The notes beneath the pieces are model-generated. The model was not told where the DNA came from and made no database searches. It saw nothing but the letters and a program-made list of their open reading frames with translations. Of a DNA stretch of 53,002 nt, positions 17,766 through 40,008 are shown one piece after another. The position numbers and the translations under genes are program-made. Numbering within the stretch: the stretch's first letter is position 1; every line of letters starts with the position of its first letter. Origin of the DNA: Candidatus Bipolaricaulota bacterium (GTDB lineage Bacteria; Bipolaricaulota; Bipolaricaulia; RBG-16-55-9; DRXL01); NCBI GenBank assembly GCA_030550495.1, contig JAUQPG010000005.1, positions 14,520 to 67,521 on the forward strand, in the 5' to 3' direction.

Positions 17766-17882
17766 ATGAAAGTGCGGAGCTCTGTCAGGAAGATCTGTGA
17801 TGCGTGTAAGATTGTGCGGCGCCACGGGCGTGTGATGGTGATCTGTAAGAACCCCAAGCACAAGCAGCGGCAGGGATGCTAA
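17766..17882 (+). CDS. rpmJ: 50S ribosomal protein L36
   Basis: [38 protein letters not shown]. Confidence 0.98.
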
Positions 17883-31761: not shown

Positions 31762-33741
31762 TTACTTAAGCTGGACGTAGCTCATCATGCCGTTCGTGCC
31801 CTGGATACCGTCGAAGACCTTCTCGTAGGGCATGTGATCGCCCACCAAGACATCGGCGCGGAAGGCCTCATAGAGTGGGGCGTTGAAGAGCGGCACATAG
31901 GGCAGCTCCTCGGAGAGCATCTCCTGCATCTTAAACGCCAGCTCTTTGAGCTTGGGTTGCTCGCAGGCCTTCTCGAACTCCTCGGCGAGCTTGTCGTACT
32001 CAGGGTTATTGTACCCTTGCGGGTTGAAGCCGCCCAGGCCCGAGTTGCGGCTGTGGAAGAAATCGACCAGGTAGCTGGGGAACAAGCCGCCCAAGCCCCA
32101 GCCCAGGATCCACGCGTCGAACTTCTGCTCATCGAAGACGCGGTTGGAGATCGTATTGAACCCGGTCAGGTTGACCTTCACGGGGATGCCGATCTTGTTA
32201 AGCCGCTCCTCGATGTGCAGGGCGAACGTAGCGCGCAGCGGGTCATAGCCCTGGTGCGGCGCCAACAGCTCAAACGGCGCGACGGCCTTGCCCTTGTACT
32301 TGAGGCCGCGTCCTGGGGTGACCTTGTTGCCGGGGATATCGACCTTGGGCTCGACGTCCCAGCTGAAGCCGGCCTGCTTGAGCAGCTTAATAGCTAAATC
32401 GGCCTTCTCCGCTTCCTTGAGACCCTTGCCGTAGGTCTTCACGTTGGGGTTGTACCAGGCGGTGTTGACCGTCGGCACGATGCTGTAGGTAGGGATGGCC
32501 AGGCCAGCCAGGAGCTGCTGGGTGACGAACTCGCGGTCGATCATAATAGAGACTGCCTGGCGGAACTCCTTCACGTTGAAGGGCTCGCGGCGCAGGTTGA
32601 AGCTCATGTAGTACAGGCCGTTGCCGGGGTTCTCCGCGATGCCCACGCCCTTGGCCTCGCGCAGCTGCTTGCGGAAGCCCGCCTGCACGCCCAAGGGGTT
32701 GAGCAAGAAGTGAATGTCGCCCTTGATGAGCGCCGCGACGGCAGTCGCCTGGTCGCCGTAGATGCGCCACTGCGTGGCGTCGACAAACGGACCGGAGGTC
32801 AGCTCCAGGCGCACCGTGGGCTTATCTTTGTCGAGAATAGCCGTGCCGGGGTCGCCATCATAGGGCTGAGGATCTTTGGTTGTATGGGTGTACTTATAGA
32901 CGCCGGGCTTCTCTTCGGTGTAGCCGCCAGAGTAGGGCCGGACGCTCTTGGCACCATAGAAGTAGTGATTCTTGTTTGCGCTAGACTCGGCAAATGCCCC
33001 AGGCTCCCACTTCTGGAAGAGCCACCCACCGATCACGGGTTCATCGTCGCCCTTGTGCTCATAGAGGGCCTTGATGGGATCCTTAGCTTCGGCAGCGGCC
33101 TTAAACTTCGGCTCCCAGTACGCCTTGCTGATGATCGGGGCGAAGAGCAACCCCTGGTCCCAATCATCGTAGCTGCACTGGGCCTTCAGATAGAACTTCA
33201 CCGTATACTTATCTACGACCTCAGCGCGATCGAAGAAGTCGGGATTGATCGTCCCTGGCCAGTTACCGCCCATCTTGATGGGGTCAATGCCCTTGTAGAG
33301 CTTGCCGCCAATGGCGTTGAACGTGAACGCCACATCTTCAGCGGTGAGCTCGCCGACTTCCTTGCCGGTCTTGGGATCGAACCACTTGATGCCCTTCTTG
33401 ATCTTGATGGTCGCGGTCTTGTCCGGCCCGATGGTGATCATCTTCTTGGCTTCTTCTTCGGTGCTGGCATCAGCAATCCCGGGGACGTAATCGAAGAACT
33501 TATCCGAGAGCCCAAATAAGCTCGGACCCCACCCGTTGAGCCGGACGTAGAAGTTCCACACCGTCGCCTTCGGCCCTAAGATAGCCAACGTATTTAAGCT
33601 CGACAGATCTTCGAAGATCGCGAGCTTGTAGATCTTCTGGGCCTGAGCCTGGACGACCGACTGAGACTGACTGGACAGCACAGCCCCGATGCAAAGCGCC
33701 AACAAAGCAACAATGGTAATGAGCTTGATATGTTTAAACAT
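31762..33741 (-). CDS. oppA: Family 5 extracellular solute-binding protein (OppA/DppA)
   Basis: Signal peptide; LTAEDVAFT, FNLRREPF...FRQAVSIMIDRE, YNNPEYDKL, EELPYVPL; strong SD. Confidence 0.92.
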   Translation of the reverse strand: MFKHIKLITIVALLALCIGAVLSSQSQSVVQAQAQKIYKLAIFEDLSSLNTLAILGPKATVWNFYVRLNGWGPSLFGLSDKFFDYVPGIADASTEEEAKKMITIGPDKTATIKIKKGIKWFDPKTGKEVGELTAEDVAFTFNAIGGKLYKGIDPIKMGGNWPGTINPDFFDRAEVVDKYTVKFYLKAQCSYDDWDQGLLFAPIISKAYWEPKFKAAAEAKDPIKALYEHKGDDEPVIGGWLFQKWEPGAFAESSANKNHYFYGAKSVRPYSGGYTEEKPGVYKYTHTTKDPQPYDGDPGTAILDKDKPTVRLELTSGPFVDATQWRIYGDQATAVAALIKGDIHFLLNPLGVQAGFRKQLREAKGVGIAENPGNGLYYMSFNLRREPFNVKEFRQAVSIMIDREFVTQQLLAGLAIPTYSIVPTVNTAWYNPNVKTYGKGLKEAEKADLAIKLLKQAGFSWDVEPKVDIPGNKVTPGRGLKYKGKAVAPFELLAPHQGYDPLRATFALHIEERLNKIGIPVKVNLTGFNTISNRVFDEQKFDAWILGWGLGGLFPSYLVDFFHSRNSGLGGFNPQGYNNPEYDKLAEEFEKACEQPKLKELAFKMQEMLSEELPYVPLFNAPLYEAFRADVLVGDHMPYEKVFDGIQGTNGMMSYVQLK

Positions 33742-33830
33742 ATCACAACCTCCTTTGCTGATTTAGTGGTGTCTTGCTTGCTGAAGAAAAAGGCTTAGAC
33801 GCTCTCCCCAGTGAGTTGACATCACCTCCT

Positions 33831-34400
33831 TTAAAATCTTCCTGGTGATACACGATACACCACCATGATGCTGCCTTTCATGGGGCTGTCTTGCACGACC
33901 TGTGTCCAACACGGTTGTTCGATCCAGCACGTTGGTGACGGTGGGCTAGCAGACCAGAGCCAGAGAGCAGCAAGGATCGCTGCTGCGGCCGCAGCCCCTA
34001 CAGCTCCCCACGCAAAACGCCGCCACCAGCTCTGTTCTTCTCTGGGATGCTGGCGCGCAGAACTGAGCAAACTCCAGCGGCGTGCCTGTAGGTATGCCAC
34101 GCGCTCTTGACAACGGGCACACGTCAAGACGTGCATGGCGACGTCGGAGCGCGTCCAGCGTGGGACACGTCCGCTCAAGAATTTCTGGAACGCTTGCTCA
34201 TCGCGGAAGGTCGCCCCAACGCGCCCCGCCCCAGGACTGTCCAGCAGCCTATTCGCCACGTATGCTCGCAGAACTTCTTCGCTTGGGTGATCAGGGTACT
34301 CAAGGCCCCGGAGACCTGCAAAAAGCTCGGCAAACTCAGCGAGCTTCTCCGTGTCCAGCTCGTCCTCGTAAGGCGGGTGCGGAGAGTACTTAGTGTCCAT
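33831..34400 (-). CDS. Zinc-finger (zf-HC2/ZAS) anti-sigma-factor-like membrane protein
   Basis: HPSEEVLRAYVANRL...VAMHVLTCARC (Hx3Cx2C), then TM FAWGAVGAAAAAAILAALWLW. ATG 34400 has SD GGAGG. Confidence 0.65.
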   Translation of the reverse strand: MDTKYSPHPPYEDELDTEKLAEFAELFAGLRGLEYPDHPSEEVLRAYVANRLLDSPGAGRVGATFRDEQAFQKFLSGRVPRWTRSDVAMHVLTCARCQERVAYLQARRWSLLSSARQHPREEQSWWRRFAWGAVGAAAAAAILAALWLWSASPPSPTCWIEQPCWTQVVQDSPMKGSIMVVYRVSPGRF

Positions 34401-34845
34401 ATGAGACCTCCGTGCGGGGGATAAGGGATGCTGAGGCGTAGAGCTGATTATACAACTCTTTAATCTTCTCTTTCTCGCGGGTGGGATTGAACTGACGCCC
34501 CACCAGACGAAAGACATGCTCCCAACTGAGCCGAGTGCCCGCGAGACGCTCTATAGTCAGATCGCGCATACGGACGCGCCCTTCCGTGATCTCGCGCACG
34601 AGCTGCTCGCGCTTATGCGGGTCGAACTCCGAACTCGCATAGTGGCTGAATAGATAGACTAATAACCCGCGCACGACGTTGGGATCGAAGCGTCGCTTCG
34701 CCTCAGCGAAGACGAACCACCGACGCGCCTTCTCCAGCTCACCGTCTAACGAGAGCAAGTCTTCCACCATCTCCGGAGGTTCGTTGGTGCACCGTAAGAT
34801 GTTCTCAGCATACGCTAAGCGCGCCAACTCAATCCGGATCTCCAT
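34390..34845 (-). CDS. Hypothetical helical protein coupled to the anti-sigma-like gene
   Basis: 151 aa; overlaps the downstream gene by 11 nt; no clear family. Confidence 0.7.
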   Translation of the reverse strand: MEIRIELARLAYAENILRCTNEPPEMVEDLLSLDGELEKARRWFVFAEAKRRFDPNVVRGLLVYLFSHYASSEFDPHKREQLVREITEGRVRMRDLTIERLAGTRLSWEHVFRLVGRQFNPTREKEKIKELYNQLYASASLIPRTEVSYGH

Positions 34846-34953
34846 TAATTATATTCACCCCTCGCGAAATCCTGACAGCTTCGGACTGTAAGCACACGAA
34901 AAGCCTTATTCTATCAAGATTCCTTTGACCTTGACTCGTCTTTTCCCCATTCC

Positions 34954-36216
34954 CTAGCGGCGTTCGTTCATGAGCACTGAGACAGAACCATCCCCTTGAT
35001 TGACGACAGCTAAGTCGGGATCACCGTCTCTATCGAAATCTCCAGCGACAATGCTCACCGGCAGCGACCCAACAGGAATAGTGATCGCTTTATTCGGCTG
35101 CACGAACTTTCCTCGCGAGGGATCGACCAAGAACTTTGCGCCAAACCCTCCAAAGCCATCGTTGAAATGCACGGTCACCGTGTTGCTTGCCGAATTCGCT
35201 GCAGCCAGATCAAGCCAACCATCCCCGTTGAAATCGCCCACGATCACGGCTCGTGGGTCTAGACCCCCTGTGGGCAGCCCTTGAGGCTCGTCAAACTTTC
35301 CTTGGCCGTCTCCAGCAAAGACTAGGAGACGGTCACTCTCGGGATTGGCCGTCACTAAATCCCCGAACGTATCGTTGTTGATATCGGCGATTTCGATCCA
35401 CGCTGGCGAATCCCCACTATAGAGCCCAGCTGCCAGGCGCTGCGCTATGACAAAACTTCCCGCGTTATCCCCAAGCAACGTAGCAGCTCGGCCAATGCTG
35501 CTGACGACGGCGTCTAGCTTCCCGTCACGATTGAGATCATAGACAGCGAGGGATTGCAAGCTCCCGCCGACAAACGTCTCGCGCACGCTCCAGCGATCTA
35601 TCTGGTCTGTCCCATTATTGATAAAGACGTAGACGCTCCCTTGAAGATTAGCACAGATAATATCAAGACGACCGTCGTTGGTGAAGTCCGCGATAGCGAC
35701 GGAACTGACGTCGCGTAGGCCGCGGGGAAGATCGCGGCTGGAAGCGGGCCGGAGCAACTCCTTCTCGTCCCCCCATAAAACCCAGAAGTTGCCCCCTGTA
35801 GGATAAGCGAGCACAACGTCAAGAAACCCATCTCTATTGAGATCACCAAGTGCTAAGACCTTACCACGGGGGACCTTGACTGTATCGTCGGCCTTGACTG
35901 AGTTAAATTCTACTAATTGTGGGGCACGAAAGATCTGTTGTGGGCTCCCAAGAGCAATGGCGACATAAAGTCTCTTAATATCTTTCTCTTCGTCTGTAAC
36001 GAGTAGGGTTGAAGTGATGATATCAAGAAGTCCATCGCGGTTGACATCGCCCAAGGCAATGGCCGTCGTGCCTGAGCCTATTAGAATAGATTGACTCTGT
36101 TGGAACTTCACAGTAGGGTTGCTGAAGGCTTCTATCCCTAGCAAGAGCACAAAGCTGCCTATGAGTATTAGCTGCCGTGTTCGGGTATCTCTGCGCATCG
36201 TGAGAAATTGTACCAT
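34954..36216 (-). CDS. Secreted FG-GAP/VCBS repeat beta-propeller protein
   Basis: Seven DxNxDGxxD-type repeats, e.g. GDVNRDGLLD, GDLNRDGFLD, DFTNDGRLD, GDFNGDGWLD. Confidence 0.9.
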   Translation of the reverse strand: MVQFLTMRRDTRTRQLILIGSFVLLLGIEAFSNPTVKFQQSQSILIGSGTTAIALGDVNRDGLLDIITSTLLVTDEEKDIKRLYVAIALGSPQQIFRAPQLVEFNSVKADDTVKVPRGKVLALGDLNRDGFLDVVLAYPTGGNFWVLWGDEKELLRPASSRDLPRGLRDVSSVAIADFTNDGRLDIICANLQGSVYVFINNGTDQIDRWSVRETFVGGSLQSLAVYDLNRDGKLDAVVSSIGRAATLLGDNAGSFVIAQRLAAGLYSGDSPAWIEIADINNDTFGDLVTANPESDRLLVFAGDGQGKFDEPQGLPTGGLDPRAVIVGDFNGDGWLDLAAANSASNTVTVHFNDGFGGFGAKFLVDPSRGKFVQPNKAITIPVGSLPVSIVAGDFDRDGDPDLAVVNQGDGSVSVLMNERR

Positions 36217-36410: not shown

Positions 36411-37604
36411 ATGTCTTCCACATATAAAGTTTTGGCAATCGTTGTCAGCTTGGCTGCGTTGCTCTTTCTGCCCTTGGTGAGCGCGCAAGAGCAGCAAGAG
36501 CTCAATCCGGTGAGCAAGCTCGATCTTGGCGGGTCCAAGGTCAACGGCTTCGTCTTCACGGCAGATGGGAAATTTGCCTTCGTCTCTGTCAGTGTCGGGC
36601 GCGAGAGCTCAGTCTTTCTTGTAGCGGCCAGCACAACGGATACCACAAAGTTTTACGGCAAGAAAGTGCGCGGCTGCCCCATTGCCGGAGAAGTCTGCCT
36701 AGCCCAAGTTCGCGGGAATATCAACCCCCAAGACTTGGCGTATAACGAGGAGAAGAAAGTGCTCTTCATACCAGGCTATGACGATGACACACTCTATATC
36801 TCGCAGGTGGCCTTTGACAAAGACGGCAACCCCACCGAAGCCAAGGCAGCCAAGAAAGTCGCTGTAGGGGCTGGCCCGCGAGCAGTCGCTGTCAACGCCG
36901 CTGGCACCCGGGCCTTCACGGTGAACGAACGCGAGCACACCGTCAGCGTCGTGGATATTTTGTATAAGGATAACGCCCCCGACAAGGGCGAAGTGATCGC
37001 GACGATCAAGCTCGACCCCGACGAAGAGAACCCCACATATCCTAGCCCGGCAGATATTGCCATTGTGGGCGATAGAGCCTTCGTCGTCAACACCGACACA
37101 TGGAAGGTCTGCGAACTTAAGAACATCAACGCGGACAGCGAGAAGGTGAAGAAGGGCGAGGAGAAGATTGAACTTGGCGCGTGCGTCGATACCGGGGCAT
37201 ATCCACGTGCTATGGCCATGCTTGGGAACACGGCGTATGTGATCAACAGTCTTGGGGACAGCGTCAGTCAGCTCTCCTTGGAGCCGTTGGAGAGCAAAGC
37301 AGAAGTCCCCGTCGGCGATGCTCCGCGGGGGATCGCCACAGACAATCAGTGCTGGGTTGTGGTGACCAATACGGGGGTAGATAACCCCGAGGGTGGCCGC
37401 CCTAGCCTCTCCTTCTTGAGCGCGGATTTGAGCAAGTCTCTCACGCTCTCCATCACAGCAAAGGAGCCAGGAGATCCGATTGTGCCAACTCAGGTGCAGG
37501 TCCTCGTCAAAGAGGGCGCTAAAGAGGTGTGGGTATTGAACATCGGAGCTCGCGGAGAGATCTTAATCTACCCTGCGCCGGAGGCTGTCCAGAGCTGTCC
37601 GTAA
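36411..37604 (+). CDS. Secreted YVTN/YncE-type beta-propeller protein
   Basis: Signal peptide; repeats VAVGAGPRAVAV...AFTVN...TVSVVD, DTGAYPRAMA, VPVGDAPRGIA. Confidence 0.85.
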   Translation: MSSTYKVLAIVVSLAALLFLPLVSAQEQQELNPVSKLDLGGSKVNGFVFTADGKFAFVSVSVGRESSVFLVAASTTDTTKFYGKKVRGCPIAGEVCLAQVRGNINPQDLAYNEEKKVLFIPGYDDDTLYISQVAFDKDGNPTEAKAAKKVAVGAGPRAVAVNAAGTRAFTVNEREHTVSVVDILYKDNAPDKGEVIATIKLDPDEENPTYPSPADIAIVGDRAFVVNTDTWKVCELKNINADSEKVKKGEEKIELGACVDTGAYPRAMAMLGNTAYVINSLGDSVSQLSLEPLESKAEVPVGDAPRGIATDNQCWVVVTNTGVDNPEGGRPSLSFLSADLSKSLTLSITAKEPGDPIVPTQVQVLVKEGAKEVWVLNIGARGEILIYPAPEAVQSCP

Positions 37605-37706: not shown

Positions 37707-37782
37707 GGGCCCGTAGCTCAGGGGTCAGAGCAGTCGGCTCATAACCGATCGGTCGCAGGTTCGAATCCTGCCGGGCCCACCA
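37707..37782 (+). tRNA. tRNA with CAT anticodon, probably tRNA-Ile2 (lysidine-modified)
   Basis: Cloverleaf GGGCCCG...GTCGG-CTCATAA-CCGAT...GGTTCGAATCC...CGGGCCC-A-CCA. The paired G1-C72 and absence of three GC pairs in the anticodon stem argue against fMet; the acceptor stem is Ile2-like. Confidence 0.92.
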
Positions 37783-37815: not shown

Positions 37816-38349
37816 ATGGAGAAACTCTTCGTGAACGTAGACGGAGCCTCGCAAGGCAATCCCGGCGAGGCTGCTATTGGCATTGTTATTGCTGACGCTG
37901 ATGGGAACGTTATTAAAGAGATCTCTGAGCACATCGGGCGCACGACCAATAACGTTGCAGAGTATCGCGCTCTCATCGAGGCGATCAAAGCTGTGATACC
38001 TTACACGCCCAAGCGCGTCATCTTCTTCACAGATAGTCAACTCCTAGCTAATCAAGTCAACGGGCTCTATCGTATTCGGCGGCCCCATCTGGAGCCCCTC
38101 AACCGTCAAGTCCATGAGCTGTTGGCAAAACTCCCCAACTGGCAGGTCAACTATGTCGAGCGCGACGCCAATTGGAAGGCGCACCGTCTCGCGCAAAAGG
38201 CGCTCTTAGAGAGAGTTGCCAAAGAGGCTGAAGTGGGCTTGCCGGAGCGCATCCGCAGGAAGGTTGAACTCCTCGATGAGATCGATCAAAGACGGGTCTT
38301 AGAATTTGTGAATCGGCTCTACGAGGAGGCCCAGAAAGACAAGACGTAA
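37816..38349 (+). CDS. rnhA: Ribonuclease HI family protein
   Basis: VDGASQGNPG, TNNVAEYRAL, TDSQLL, ANWKAHRLA; C-terminal helical extension. Confidence 0.88.
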   Translation: MEKLFVNVDGASQGNPGEAAIGIVIADADGNVIKEISEHIGRTTNNVAEYRALIEAIKAVIPYTPKRVIFFTDSQLLANQVNGLYRIRRPHLEPLNRQVHELLAKLPNWQVNYVERDANWKAHRLAQKALLERVAKEAEVGLPERIRRKVELLDEIDQRRVLEFVNRLYEEAQKDKT

Positions 38350-38388: not shown

Positions 38389-40008
38389 ATGGGTGGGTAT
38401 CTCAAAGGGTGTCTTCTCGTTTGTGGGATTCTCTTTGTAGTGACGGGCTGCTGGCCTATGCCCAATAGAATCAGCGTCAGCGCTGATGGGCTGCTTGCTC
38501 TTTCCGTCTCTTCAAGAGAGACTGATGGGTCCTACGAAGCCCTCCCTCAAGCAGGACACGTGTGGCTTATAGATTCTCAAACAGGGCGCGTGCAGACTGT
38601 GCTCACTGAGGGTGAGAATCTCTCGTGGGTGACGTTCTCTCCTGACGGGAACGAGTTGCTCTACGTTGAAAGCCCCAGCGTCGAGCTACCTCAGATTCTA
38701 ATGGGAAAACTCTCACATCCCTGGCGGTTAATGCTCTTCGACCGTCGGAGCAACACTCAAACGGAGCTCTTATCGGGGGATCACGGCTTTATCTGGGCAC
38801 CAACGTTTTCTCCTGACGGGCGCAAGATCGCGTTCTATAAATTTTATCACAATCATACGGGCGACTATCTCAATCTGCATATCTTTGACAGGGACAGCCG
38901 TCAGGAGAGGCTGCTCAAATCCGTACAGGATAAAGAGGGTATCTATTACGCGCCCTACGGGCCGGGGCCCCTGTGGGCTCCTGATAGTCGGGGGGTGTTC
39001 GCTTTCCGTATTGAAAAGATCTTCCCTGAAGAAACTTTGCTCAGCCCAGAGGAGATCACTGCAGAAACAGTACGGATCTTCGCGGGGCGACTCGCTGTGC
39101 TCAGCATTGATTGTGGATGCGAGCACAGCATTGCCAAGGGATTCTTCCCGCTCTTGCCTGTTCCACTCTTTTTAGTAGCATCTCCCGATGGCCAAAAACT
39201 CTATGTCAATGGCTATGACCAGACGTTCTCTGTGAGTGCCCGTGAGCGCGTTAATCTCTACGAGATCAGGGTTGAGACCGGCGAACAAGCGGTGCTCTAT
39301 GACGGGGGTGGGATCGCGCTCGCTCCGGCACTCTCCCCCGATGGGGAGCGCCTGCTCTTCACGGTCATCTCTCCCGAAGAACCCTTGAAGGCCGATCTCT
39401 ATGTGCTTGATCTTACCTCAGCAGCACCCGCCCGGAAGGTGACCGATGACGGGCAGTCGGGCTTTGGGTTCTGGCTCTCTCGCGAAGAGATAGGGTTCTT
39501 GCGCGTAAGAACCCCCCAAGCACTCCGTGGTGAGATCTGGGTAAGAAATCTCAACACTAACGAGGAGCGCAATCTCAGTATGCTCTTGGCTGTGCAAAGC
39601 CATCTTGTGCAGTTGAGCCAAGAGGCAAAAGTCTATGAGAAATCCCTTGAGCGAGTGGAGCGCCAGCTCACAGCCCTGAACGATGCTGTTGCTGCACTAC
39701 CAGGAGCTATAATGGCTCTCTCTGAAAAGCTAGACGCTGCGCAGACGCAGAGCCTTGAAATAGCGAATCGCACAGATCAACAATTGACTAAGCTTGCTCA
39801 AGATATTGGTGCGCTCCTGGCTGATATGAGCGCGATGAAGGCTCAGCTCTCGGGGATAGAAACAGAAGTACAAACTGTCAGTAAACGGCCTGCGCTCTCG
39901 TTCTGGCAGCTTGTGATCGCGCTACTGATCGCTGTGATCGTGATCGTCTGGCTTGTTCGGCGCGCCTTGCACTCGCTCGCTCAGCAGATAGCTTTGCCGC
40001 CCCAGTAA
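38389..40008 (+). CDS. Putative lipoprotein: TolB/PD40-like propeller + coiled coil + C-terminal TM
   Basis: Lipobox VTGC; repeated (F/W/L)SPDG motifs; heptad-like region; FWQLVIALLIAVIVIVWLVRR. Confidence 0.75.
   Translation: MGGYLKGCLLVCGILFVVTGCWPMPNRISVSADGLLALSVSSRETDGSYEALPQAGHVWLIDSQTGRVQTVLTEGENLSWVTFSPDGNELLYVESPSVELPQILMGKLSHPWRLMLFDRRSNTQTELLSGDHGFIWAPTFSPDGRKIAFYKFYHNHTGDYLNLHIFDRDSRQERLLKSVQDKEGIYYAPYGPGPLWAPDSRGVFAFRIEKIFPEETLLSPEEITAETVRIFAGRLAVLSIDCGCEHSIAKGFFPLLPVPLFLVASPDGQKLYVNGYDQTFSVSARERVNLYEIRVETGEQAVLYDGGGIALAPALSPDGERLLFTVISPEEPLKADLYVLDLTSAAPARKVTDDGQSGFGFWLSREEIGFLRVRTPQALRGEIWVRNLNTNEERNLSMLLAVQSHLVQLSQEAKVYEKSLERVERQLTALNDAVAALPGAIMALSEKLDAAQTQSLEIANRTDQQLTKLAQDIGALLADMSAMKAQLSGIETEVQTVSKRPALSFWQLVIALLIAVIVIVWLVRRALHSLAQQIALPPQ

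Follow-up and report, generated by a model that had tools for sequence, protein, structure and literature searches.

Sigma/anti-sigma pairs are among the commonest signalling devices of bacteria; in ChrR-RpoE, RsrA-SigR and RsiW-SigW, a class-I zinc anti-sigma factor is paired with an extracytoplasmic function (ECF) sigma factor. SigO-RsoA, known from a 2009 study, is reportedly a sigma factor made of two subunits. In the PhyR-NepR-EcfG system, PhyR has a receiver domain and imitates an entire ECF sigma factor, and NepR is not of the zinc anti-sigma type. We report here on two overlapping genes in a stretch of 53,002 nucleotides ('the window') from a Candidatus Bipolaricaulota bacterium: the first encodes an all-helical protein, designated X, and the second a zinc anti-sigma-like membrane protein. 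On balance we favour the view that together they make up a regulator and its anti-regulator, a module of the sigma/anti-sigma kind in which the zinc protein would sequester X. The genes are placed as follows:

34390..34845, minus strand: gene for X (151 residues, all-helical), from its open reading frame and translation
33831..34400, minus strand: gene for the 189-residue zinc anti-sigma-like membrane protein, from its open reading frame and sub-threshold zf-HC2 and ChrR-type matches

X comes first and the zinc protein downstream, with an overlap of 11 nucleotides; the second gene starts at the ATG at 34400, and GGAGG lies 9 nucleotides upstream of this start. Both open reading frames, their overlap, the split zinc motif, the single transmembrane segment and the cysteine-pair tail are as the first-pass annotation, made from the letters alone, had described them.

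In passages of Casas-Pastor et al. 2020 (PMC7406223), the class-I zinc anti-sigma domain is characterised by an Hx3Cx2C signature across helices 2 and 3 and by a dual interface with sigma-4 and sigma-2. The present locus resembles an ECF/class-I zinc pair in being an operon of two overlapping genes led by the regulator, in having a partner with Hx3Cx2C, an upstream histidine and a single membrane helix, in the predicted contact of the zinc domain with both halves of the regulator, and in its own apparent promoter motif. It differs in several respects. The gene upstream of the zinc protein is not an ECF sigma gene by Pfam, since X matches neither Sigma70_r2 nor Sigma70_r4, and there is no sigma-2 domain at all. 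The zinc domain falls short of the Pfam cut-off; an insert of 34 residues separates its first histidine from Hx3Cx2C, and an extra N-terminal helix of the zinc protein supplies many of the predicted contacts. Finally, the -10-like element is TAnnAT, not of the ECF type.

The zinc protein and its pairing with X

The zinc protein carries HPSEEVLRAYVANRL at residues 38-52 and, beyond the insert, VAMHVLTCARC at residues 87-97, which gives the motif H38...H90-x3-C94-x2-C97. Three parts follow one another along its sequence:

34062..34352, minus strand: cytoplasmic partner-binding domain, residues 17-113, from invariant columns and the predicted interface
33945..34019, minus strand: single transmembrane segment, residues 128-152, from a hydropathy scan (Kyte-Doolittle maximum 1.87)
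33834..33944, minus strand: extracytoplasmic tail of 37 residues, 153-189, with CWIEQPCW (C158 and C165) and the C-terminus ...GRF

The cytoplasmic domain is laid out as an N-terminal helix (residues 17-33), H38-P39, the insert, H90-x3-C94-x2-C97 and a further helix. Seven residues (H38, P39, Y47, W82, H90, C94 and C97) are invariant in all 22 aligned partners, which are 24-87% identical to the window protein. The Hx3Cx2C signature is thus present in 22 of 22, and the candidate fourth ligand, H38, is equally invariant, yet stands 52 residues before H90 owing to the insert.

Database models recognise this domain faintly. The zf-HC2 model (PF13490) gave 13.6 bits on the window protein (E 0.075), below the Pfam cut-off of 22.2; among the 22 partners, five matched it at E ≤ 1 and none exceeded the gathering cut-off. 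A ChrR-type anti-sigma-E model matched at E 0.0051, also sub-threshold, and further anti-sigma models at E 0.05-0.16. Sub-threshold matches among PDB sequences were to the anti-sigma factor DdvA (E 0.85) and to a CHAT protein bearing a zinc-binding anti-sigma domain (E 0.11). None of 27 homologues has a Pfam domain, and all are named 'hypothetical'. The motif and its conservation support the earlier suggestion that the 189-residue protein is anti-sigma-like: it behaves as a divergent zinc anti-sigma-domain membrane protein. Its tail is conserved in close relatives only. Within L001-L011 the cysteine-pair stretch is gapped in three of 11 (L007, L010 and L011) and, because it is missing there, the pair is probably not essential. 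The outer tail may be a sensing or cleavage region.

The partnership itself was examined by structure prediction. A complex of X, partner residues 1-125 and zinc was predicted in three runs alongside three controls; the predicted interface score, ipSAE, was 0.88, 0.87 and 0.88 for the complex against 0.01 for the best control, values that express the confidence of the model and are no measurement. In a benchmark, the same mark was attained by 116 of 157 solved complexes and by 2 of 215 mismatched pairs. At least 85% of the contacts were common to the runs, with a predicted local distance difference test (pLDDT) score of at least 74 for the partner. On X, the interface takes in residues 3-15, 61-70, 77-85, 95-102 and 121-129; it touches both halves and includes residues 97-102 and 121-129 of a putative helix-turn-helix (HTH). 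On the partner, it comprises residues 17-33, 50-71, 84-93 and 101-112. The cytoplasmic domain of the zinc protein is therefore predicted to bind X. On the X side the score is less likely to reflect model memory, because a PDB sequence profile search with X returned no match at E ≤ 10.

The pair is also conserved. Of 23 Bipolaricaulota loci, 19 have an overlapping open reading frame with Hx3Cx2C downstream of X. The same linkage holds at ten of ten loci of a family of longer relatives, described below, and for both paralogs (2/2) in the genome of the window. This genome (1.63 Mb, 91.8% complete) has three X/zinc pairs, in the window and on contigs C60 and C31. The X of C31 (L030:988-2540, minus strand), which is likewise followed by a zinc anti-sigma-like gene, has a CxxC...CxxC insert between its halves; the subfamily with this insert, likely a zinc ribbon, also includes P0056, P0057, P0065 and P0068. 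In three 50%-identity clusters (P0049, P0051 and P0055) the C-half of X, lacking the last helix, runs directly into the zinc domain and membrane helix; these may be genuine fusions, or else gene calls that were cut short. Unlinked genes, a missing interface or a non-conserved Hx3Cx2C had been named in the first-pass annotation as grounds for abandoning the pairing. The genes proved to be linked, an interface was predicted and the motif is invariant.

Two ordinary ECF sigma genes are present in the same genome; a canonical zf-HC2 protein is encoded after one of them, a different membrane protein after the other. Since both ECF genes have their own downstream membrane or zf-HC2 gene, the X-linked zinc proteins come in addition to the ECF anti-sigma candidates.

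Protein X and its sigma-2-bearing relatives

An AlphaFold2 model of X built from 39 sequences consists of eight helices (mean pLDDT 91.3, predicted template modelling score 0.83), arranged in two halves joined by a short linker. The halves differ in charge, the N-half being acidic (isoelectric point 5.3) and the C-half basic (9.7). One feature stands out in the C-half:

34438..34536, minus strand: putative HTH of X, residues 104-136 (TRLSWEHVFRLVGRQFNPTREKEKIKELYNQLY), resembling sigma region 4.2

The residues of the putative HTH that are invariant in the family are L106, W108, F112, L114, G116, N120, P121 and R123, and the most conserved stretch is the last helix (FNPTREK). No Pfam domain was found in any of the 38 homologues of X, and none bears a name beyond 'hypothetical protein'; the 23 genome loci of X all come from metagenome-assembled genomes labelled Bipolaricaulota, Acetothermia, 'Fraserbacteria' or uncultured Thermotogae. 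The X family is limited to Bipolaricaulota/Acetothermia and was not previously described.

A comparison of X with sigma-2 and sigma-4 had been proposed. The reference was a set of 29 ECF sigma factors from 41 genomes of the same phylum, compared by hhalign. The C-half matched ECF sigma-4 marginally (E 0.026-0.027), over the HTH (LSWEHVFRLVG...NPTREKEKIKELY), and the N-half did not match ECF sigma-2 significantly (E 0.36). The echoes of sigma-2 that had been noticed in MVEDLLS and RRFDP are accordingly not borne out. A Foldseek search with the model of X gave a weak list, whose top 50 contained eight longer sigma or sigma-complex chains and eight isolated sigma region-4 chains, each of the latter aligned nearly whole (57-80 residues). 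The eight are given here by row, with the value listed for each:

Row 1: 6ono_B, SigA region 4, 4.2
Row 2: 3hug_A, SigL region 4, 4.1
Row 6: 2h27_D, sigmaE region 4, 3.9
Row 17: 4g6d_A, sigmaA domain 4, 3.6
Row 20: 3vep_D, SigD region 4, 3.5
Row 34: 5fgm_A, SigR region 4, 3.3
Row 35: 8jzt_A, SigF, 3.3
Row 47: 2o8x_A, SigC region 4, 3.2

The ESM Atlas returned scores of 0.83-0.86 only for X, which is the chance range. Matches of the X profile to ankyrin repeats over positions 17-93 (eukaryote-type P0063, P0064, P0066 and P0067; E 7.6e-6 to 1.4e-4, with more than one stretch in each) were set aside, since the repeats probably inflate their scores.

More informative relatives came from a profile search with X over 1.84 billion representatives, in which 30 proteins were found at E ≤ 0.001. 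Besides X-sized proteins, these comprised the zinc-domain fusions, the CxxC-insert subfamily and proteins of about 400 residues with a complete X module. In the relatives of about 410 residues, the module, N-half included, occupies the last ~140 residues (~273-411). At E ≤ 2.2e-79 this long family numbers 22 full-length proteins; none has a name other than 'hypothetical', and their labels are Bipolaricaulia or Acetothermia. In an AlphaFold2 model of the family (27 sequences, pLDDT 82.8), residues 1-130 match ECF sigma-2 domains; the N-domain aligned with the ECF sigma-2 alignment of the phylum at E 9.6e-5, and one member matches Pfam Sigma70_r2 at E 0.01, below the cut-off. By profile and by model, then, the long relatives carry a sigma-2 domain. 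The best 50 rows for the long model included no sigma-4 chain; they were filled by sigma-2 domains and three-helix bundles, hence the search was no test for sigma-4. P0052 has matches in 50 of 184 genomes of the phylum.

At each of the ten long-family loci that were fetched, a gene with HP...Hx3Cx2C and membrane helices comes directly after X. Two arrangements occur: a fused one, sigma-2-X followed by the zinc protein (L066 and L067), and a split one, in which a sigma-2 protein, X and the zinc protein are separate (L068-L071 and L073, from same-genus and same-family genomes, L073 being of the genus of the window). No sigma-2-bearing gene stands beside the window X, its upstream neighbour being an FG-GAP repeat protein gene, and a search of its genome with the A4 profile at E ≤ 10 gave only the X genes on C28 (the contig of the window) and C60. 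Secreted proteases were seen flanking long-family loci: a matrixin-like metallopeptidase after the zinc protein (L067:3283-4212) and, before the operon, what was judged by eye to be a subtilisin-type protease (L073:1-1482).

The N-half of X does not correspond to sigma-2, because relatives possess a sigma-2 domain besides the complete X module; and because the sigma-2 partner is absent from both operon and genome, the window X cannot be a self-sufficient sigma factor. The first-pass suggestion of an extremely divergent sigma factor therefore stands in part: X is sigma-related, not a sigma factor itself but its C-terminal module, with sigma-2 separate in relatives and absent here. From profiles and models, X is probably the anti-sigma-binding C-terminal module of an undescribed sigma-like family, and its HTH probably descends from sigma region 4. 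X itself would most naturally derive from the region-4 end of that sigma-like protein.

The split loci are like SigO-RsoA in that neighbouring genes encode the sigma-2 part and the X part separately, sigma function being divided over two polypeptides. They differ from it in having no sequence relation to it and in that a zinc anti-sigma-like gene then follows; the window genome, moreover, has the X part only. The long relatives, as sigma-2 proteins with a large C-terminal module, also recall ECF factors with C-terminal extensions (ECF41, ECF42, ECF238 and others), for which passages of Casas-Pastor et al. 2021 (PMC7826278) state that the extension usually accompanies the absence of an anti-sigma factor. 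In contrast, all ten long-family loci have an anti-sigma-like gene next in line. According to the same passages, Pfam sigma-2 and sigma-4 matches were demanded for the ECF re-classification (PMC7826278), and the long relatives have neither. X-type proteins go unrecognised by the models on which current ECF catalogues depend, and each source consulted calls them 'hypothetical'. Acetothermia is not mentioned in the main text of that re-classification (PMC7826278), whose supplementary tables might list such proteins, and in the literature collection that was searched in full text, no paper paired Acetothermia with sigma factors.

Upstream elements and gene neighbourhood

The 108-nucleotide region upstream of X contains four conserved places in 12 close relatives (alignment A3):

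34930-34935, minus strand: GTCAAG, a conserved distal element
34908-34916, minus strand: TGATAGAAT, extended -10-like, a conserved distal element
34872-34877, minus strand: TGTCAG, -35-like; all 12 close relatives share its G, T, C and A
34848-34853, minus strand: TATAAT, 18 nucleotides after TGTCAG and 2 nucleotides from the ATG of X

TGTCAG proved to be the most enriched hexamer in the 150 nucleotides upstream of the superfamily operons, being present in 9 of 18 where 0.42 would be expected, the window group being counted once (binomial P = 7.6e-11, uncorrected for the 4096 hexamers and overstated because the operons are related). The variants TGTTAGAA or CGTCAGAA lie upstream of three more of the 18. 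In seven operons (the window, L013, L015, L017, L022, L035 and L068), TAnnAT follows 18 nucleotides after the motif, which is absent upstream of both canonical ECF operons of the same genome. The promoter of the X operon, by its sequence and by analogy with ECF systems, looks like an autoregulated one with its own -35 element.

Other explanations of these sequences were tried. A reading of TGTCAG as a divergent -35 (CTGACA) was rejected: the -10-like element lies on the X side in seven operons, and none is found opposite in the window or L035. The hexamers ATTATA, TATAGC and CGTCAA were rejected as an X motif, since they are the reverse of the TTGACG...TATAAT promoter of a divergent tRNA-Leu(CAA) gene. 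In all five loci checked (L035:1229-1318, which is C60 of the window's own genome, L012, L017, L019 and L020), this gene adjoins the second X paralog group on its upstream side. A simple sigma-70 promoter scan of 33500-35200, distal elements included, found nothing.

Over the whole genome, TGTCAG-N18-TAnnAT occurs at 11 sites against about two expected, as estimated from base composition; TGTCAG at a spacing of 18 from a -10-like hexamer was found eight times against 0.7 expected. Examples are C11:9697, C20:9399, C25:45627, C2:13877 and C51:8288, and several of the sites lie 27-66 nucleotides before genes for secreted (signal-peptide) proteins. A site in the window at 17783 (plus strand) falls within a ribosomal protein cluster, 82 nucleotides before rpsM, and may be due to chance.

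Downstream of the pair, 89 nucleotides past the stop of the zinc protein, an SBP_bac_5 (OppA-type) binding protein gene starts at 33741. A regulatory link to this peptide transporter or to the adjacent propeller genes had been envisaged; it did not find support, as the FG-GAP/Opp synteny is limited to close relatives, and paralogs and distant members stand in other contexts, adjoining rsmA, an FAA-hydrolase gene or tRNA-Leu. The C60 paralog is flanked by the divergent tRNA-Leu(CAA) gene and an FAA-hydrolase gene. Farther upstream, the window has a seven-bladed propeller of the lactonase-like kind at 36411-37604, followed by tRNA-Met (37707-37782), a protein of the RNase H / RVT_3 type (37816-38349) and, at 38389-40008, a PD40/DPPIV_N propeller protein whose C-terminus bears a membrane helix. 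The stretch is also contained in contigs from two metatranscriptomic libraries of one sediment study (shares 0.71 and 0.64). One of these contigs, 2249 nucleotides long, spans 33565-35400, that is, the 5' end of Opp, both genes and the 3' end of FG-GAP, with nine differences and two gaps. Among raw-read metatranscriptomes, about 3% of each of two runs gave 0 reads, a share too small to serve as a test.

Weighing the readings

If the pair is a sigma/anti-sigma-like module, the class-I zinc-type (His2Cys2) protein, anchored by its one membrane helix, would wrap X and keep it at the membrane. Release of X would follow from a signal at the zinc site or the short outer tail; through contact with DNA or RNA polymerase, X would then act on transcription via its HTH at promoters with TGTCAG(A/G)A at -35, its own promoter included.

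A number of observations weigh against this proposal. Four of the 23 loci (L016, L018, L020 and L023) have an X with no Hx3Cx2C open reading frame anywhere in the DNA fetched for them. X obtained no usable match in Pfam, NCBIfam, PADLOC or PHROGs, none of the 39 X family members matches a sigma or HTH family of Pfam even when E values up to 10 are allowed, and whole X against the ECF sigma factors was not significant by hhalign, either with 39 sequences (E 0.52) or with 55 superfamily members (E 0.2). The middle segment of the long proteins scores E 0.023 against sigma-4, equal to the 0.026-0.027 of X, and for this reason X could be a C-terminal extension of a sigma factor and not its region 4. 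The distance of 2 nucleotides between TATAAT and the annotated start codon of X does not suit a normal transcription start for that codon, and a leaderless reading does not suit the spacing either. The set of 11 genomic sites, considered as a possible regulon, is a lead only and could belong to another factor. As for the contigs from RNA libraries, they attest presence in the library and give no indication of transcription or of its starts.

Among the alternatives, X might be a decoy or adaptor that does not bind DNA, a PhyR-like sigma mimic that titrates the zinc protein or docks on another sigma factor, the output passing through a canonical sigma. We regard this as unlikely, though X does retain the anti-sigma-binding module without sigma-2, fusions of X with the zinc domain lacking the last X helix exist, and four PhyR entries (9by5, 5uxv, 5uxw and 9cb6) were among the weak Foldseek rows (E 2-5). 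The likeness to PhyR-NepR-EcfG is that a sigma-derived protein, itself no sigma factor, binds an anti-sigma factor, here by prediction. X, however, has no receiver or other switch domain attached, its partner is of the zinc type and no third partner is known here. Both canonical ECF genes have downstream anti-sigma candidates of their own and no TGTCAG motif, and the conserved last helix (FNPTREK) and basic C-half fit nucleic-acid contact better.

It is quite improbable, in our judgement, that the pair has no role in transcription, being a membrane zinc or redox sensor or a scaffold with X as a chaperone, protease adaptor or the like. The lack of a significant match of X to any family or fold and the weak ankyrin-repeat matches over its N-half would suit such a role; the fusion or adjacency of X to a sigma-2 domain in relatives, the anti-sigma type of the partner and the conserved promoter-like motif upstream of X do not. 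Least probable of all is that X is a complete miniaturised sigma factor, its four-helix N-half serving as sigma-2 and its four-helix C-half as sigma-4 in a divergent ECF pair: the eight helices in two halves with a short linker, the anti-sigma-like partner and a collinear superfamily/ECF alignment (PEMVEDL with AEDVVQ, WF.FAEAK with WI.GIARN, LSWEHVFRLVG with LSYSEIAQILG) agree with it, but neither that alignment nor that of the N-half with sigma-2 is significant (E 0.2 and 0.36), relatives hold a real sigma-2 in addition to the whole X module, and in the long model the N-half matches generic three-helix bundles only.

Returning to a module of the sigma/anti-sigma kind, a more daring version of it, which we put forward as a rather doubtful speculation, is that Bipolaricaulota have a sigma family in which region 4 was replaced by, or diverged into, the X module, and which exists in fused, split and sigma-2-less states under zinc anti-sigma control; the window X would then supply a -35 reader (TGTCAGAA) to a polymerase carrying region 2 of another sigma factor. 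Sigma appropriation would, if this is true, have a cellular form.

Should the sigma/anti-sigma-like reading hold, X and its relatives would represent a new sigma-like family with a previously unrecognised C-terminal module. The fused, split and sigma-2-less forms would constitute a natural series indicating how far a sigma factor can be dismantled under anti-sigma control. These pairs, three per 1.6-Mb genome, would then be the chief additional regulatory modules in a phylum that is poorly known and for the most part uncultured.

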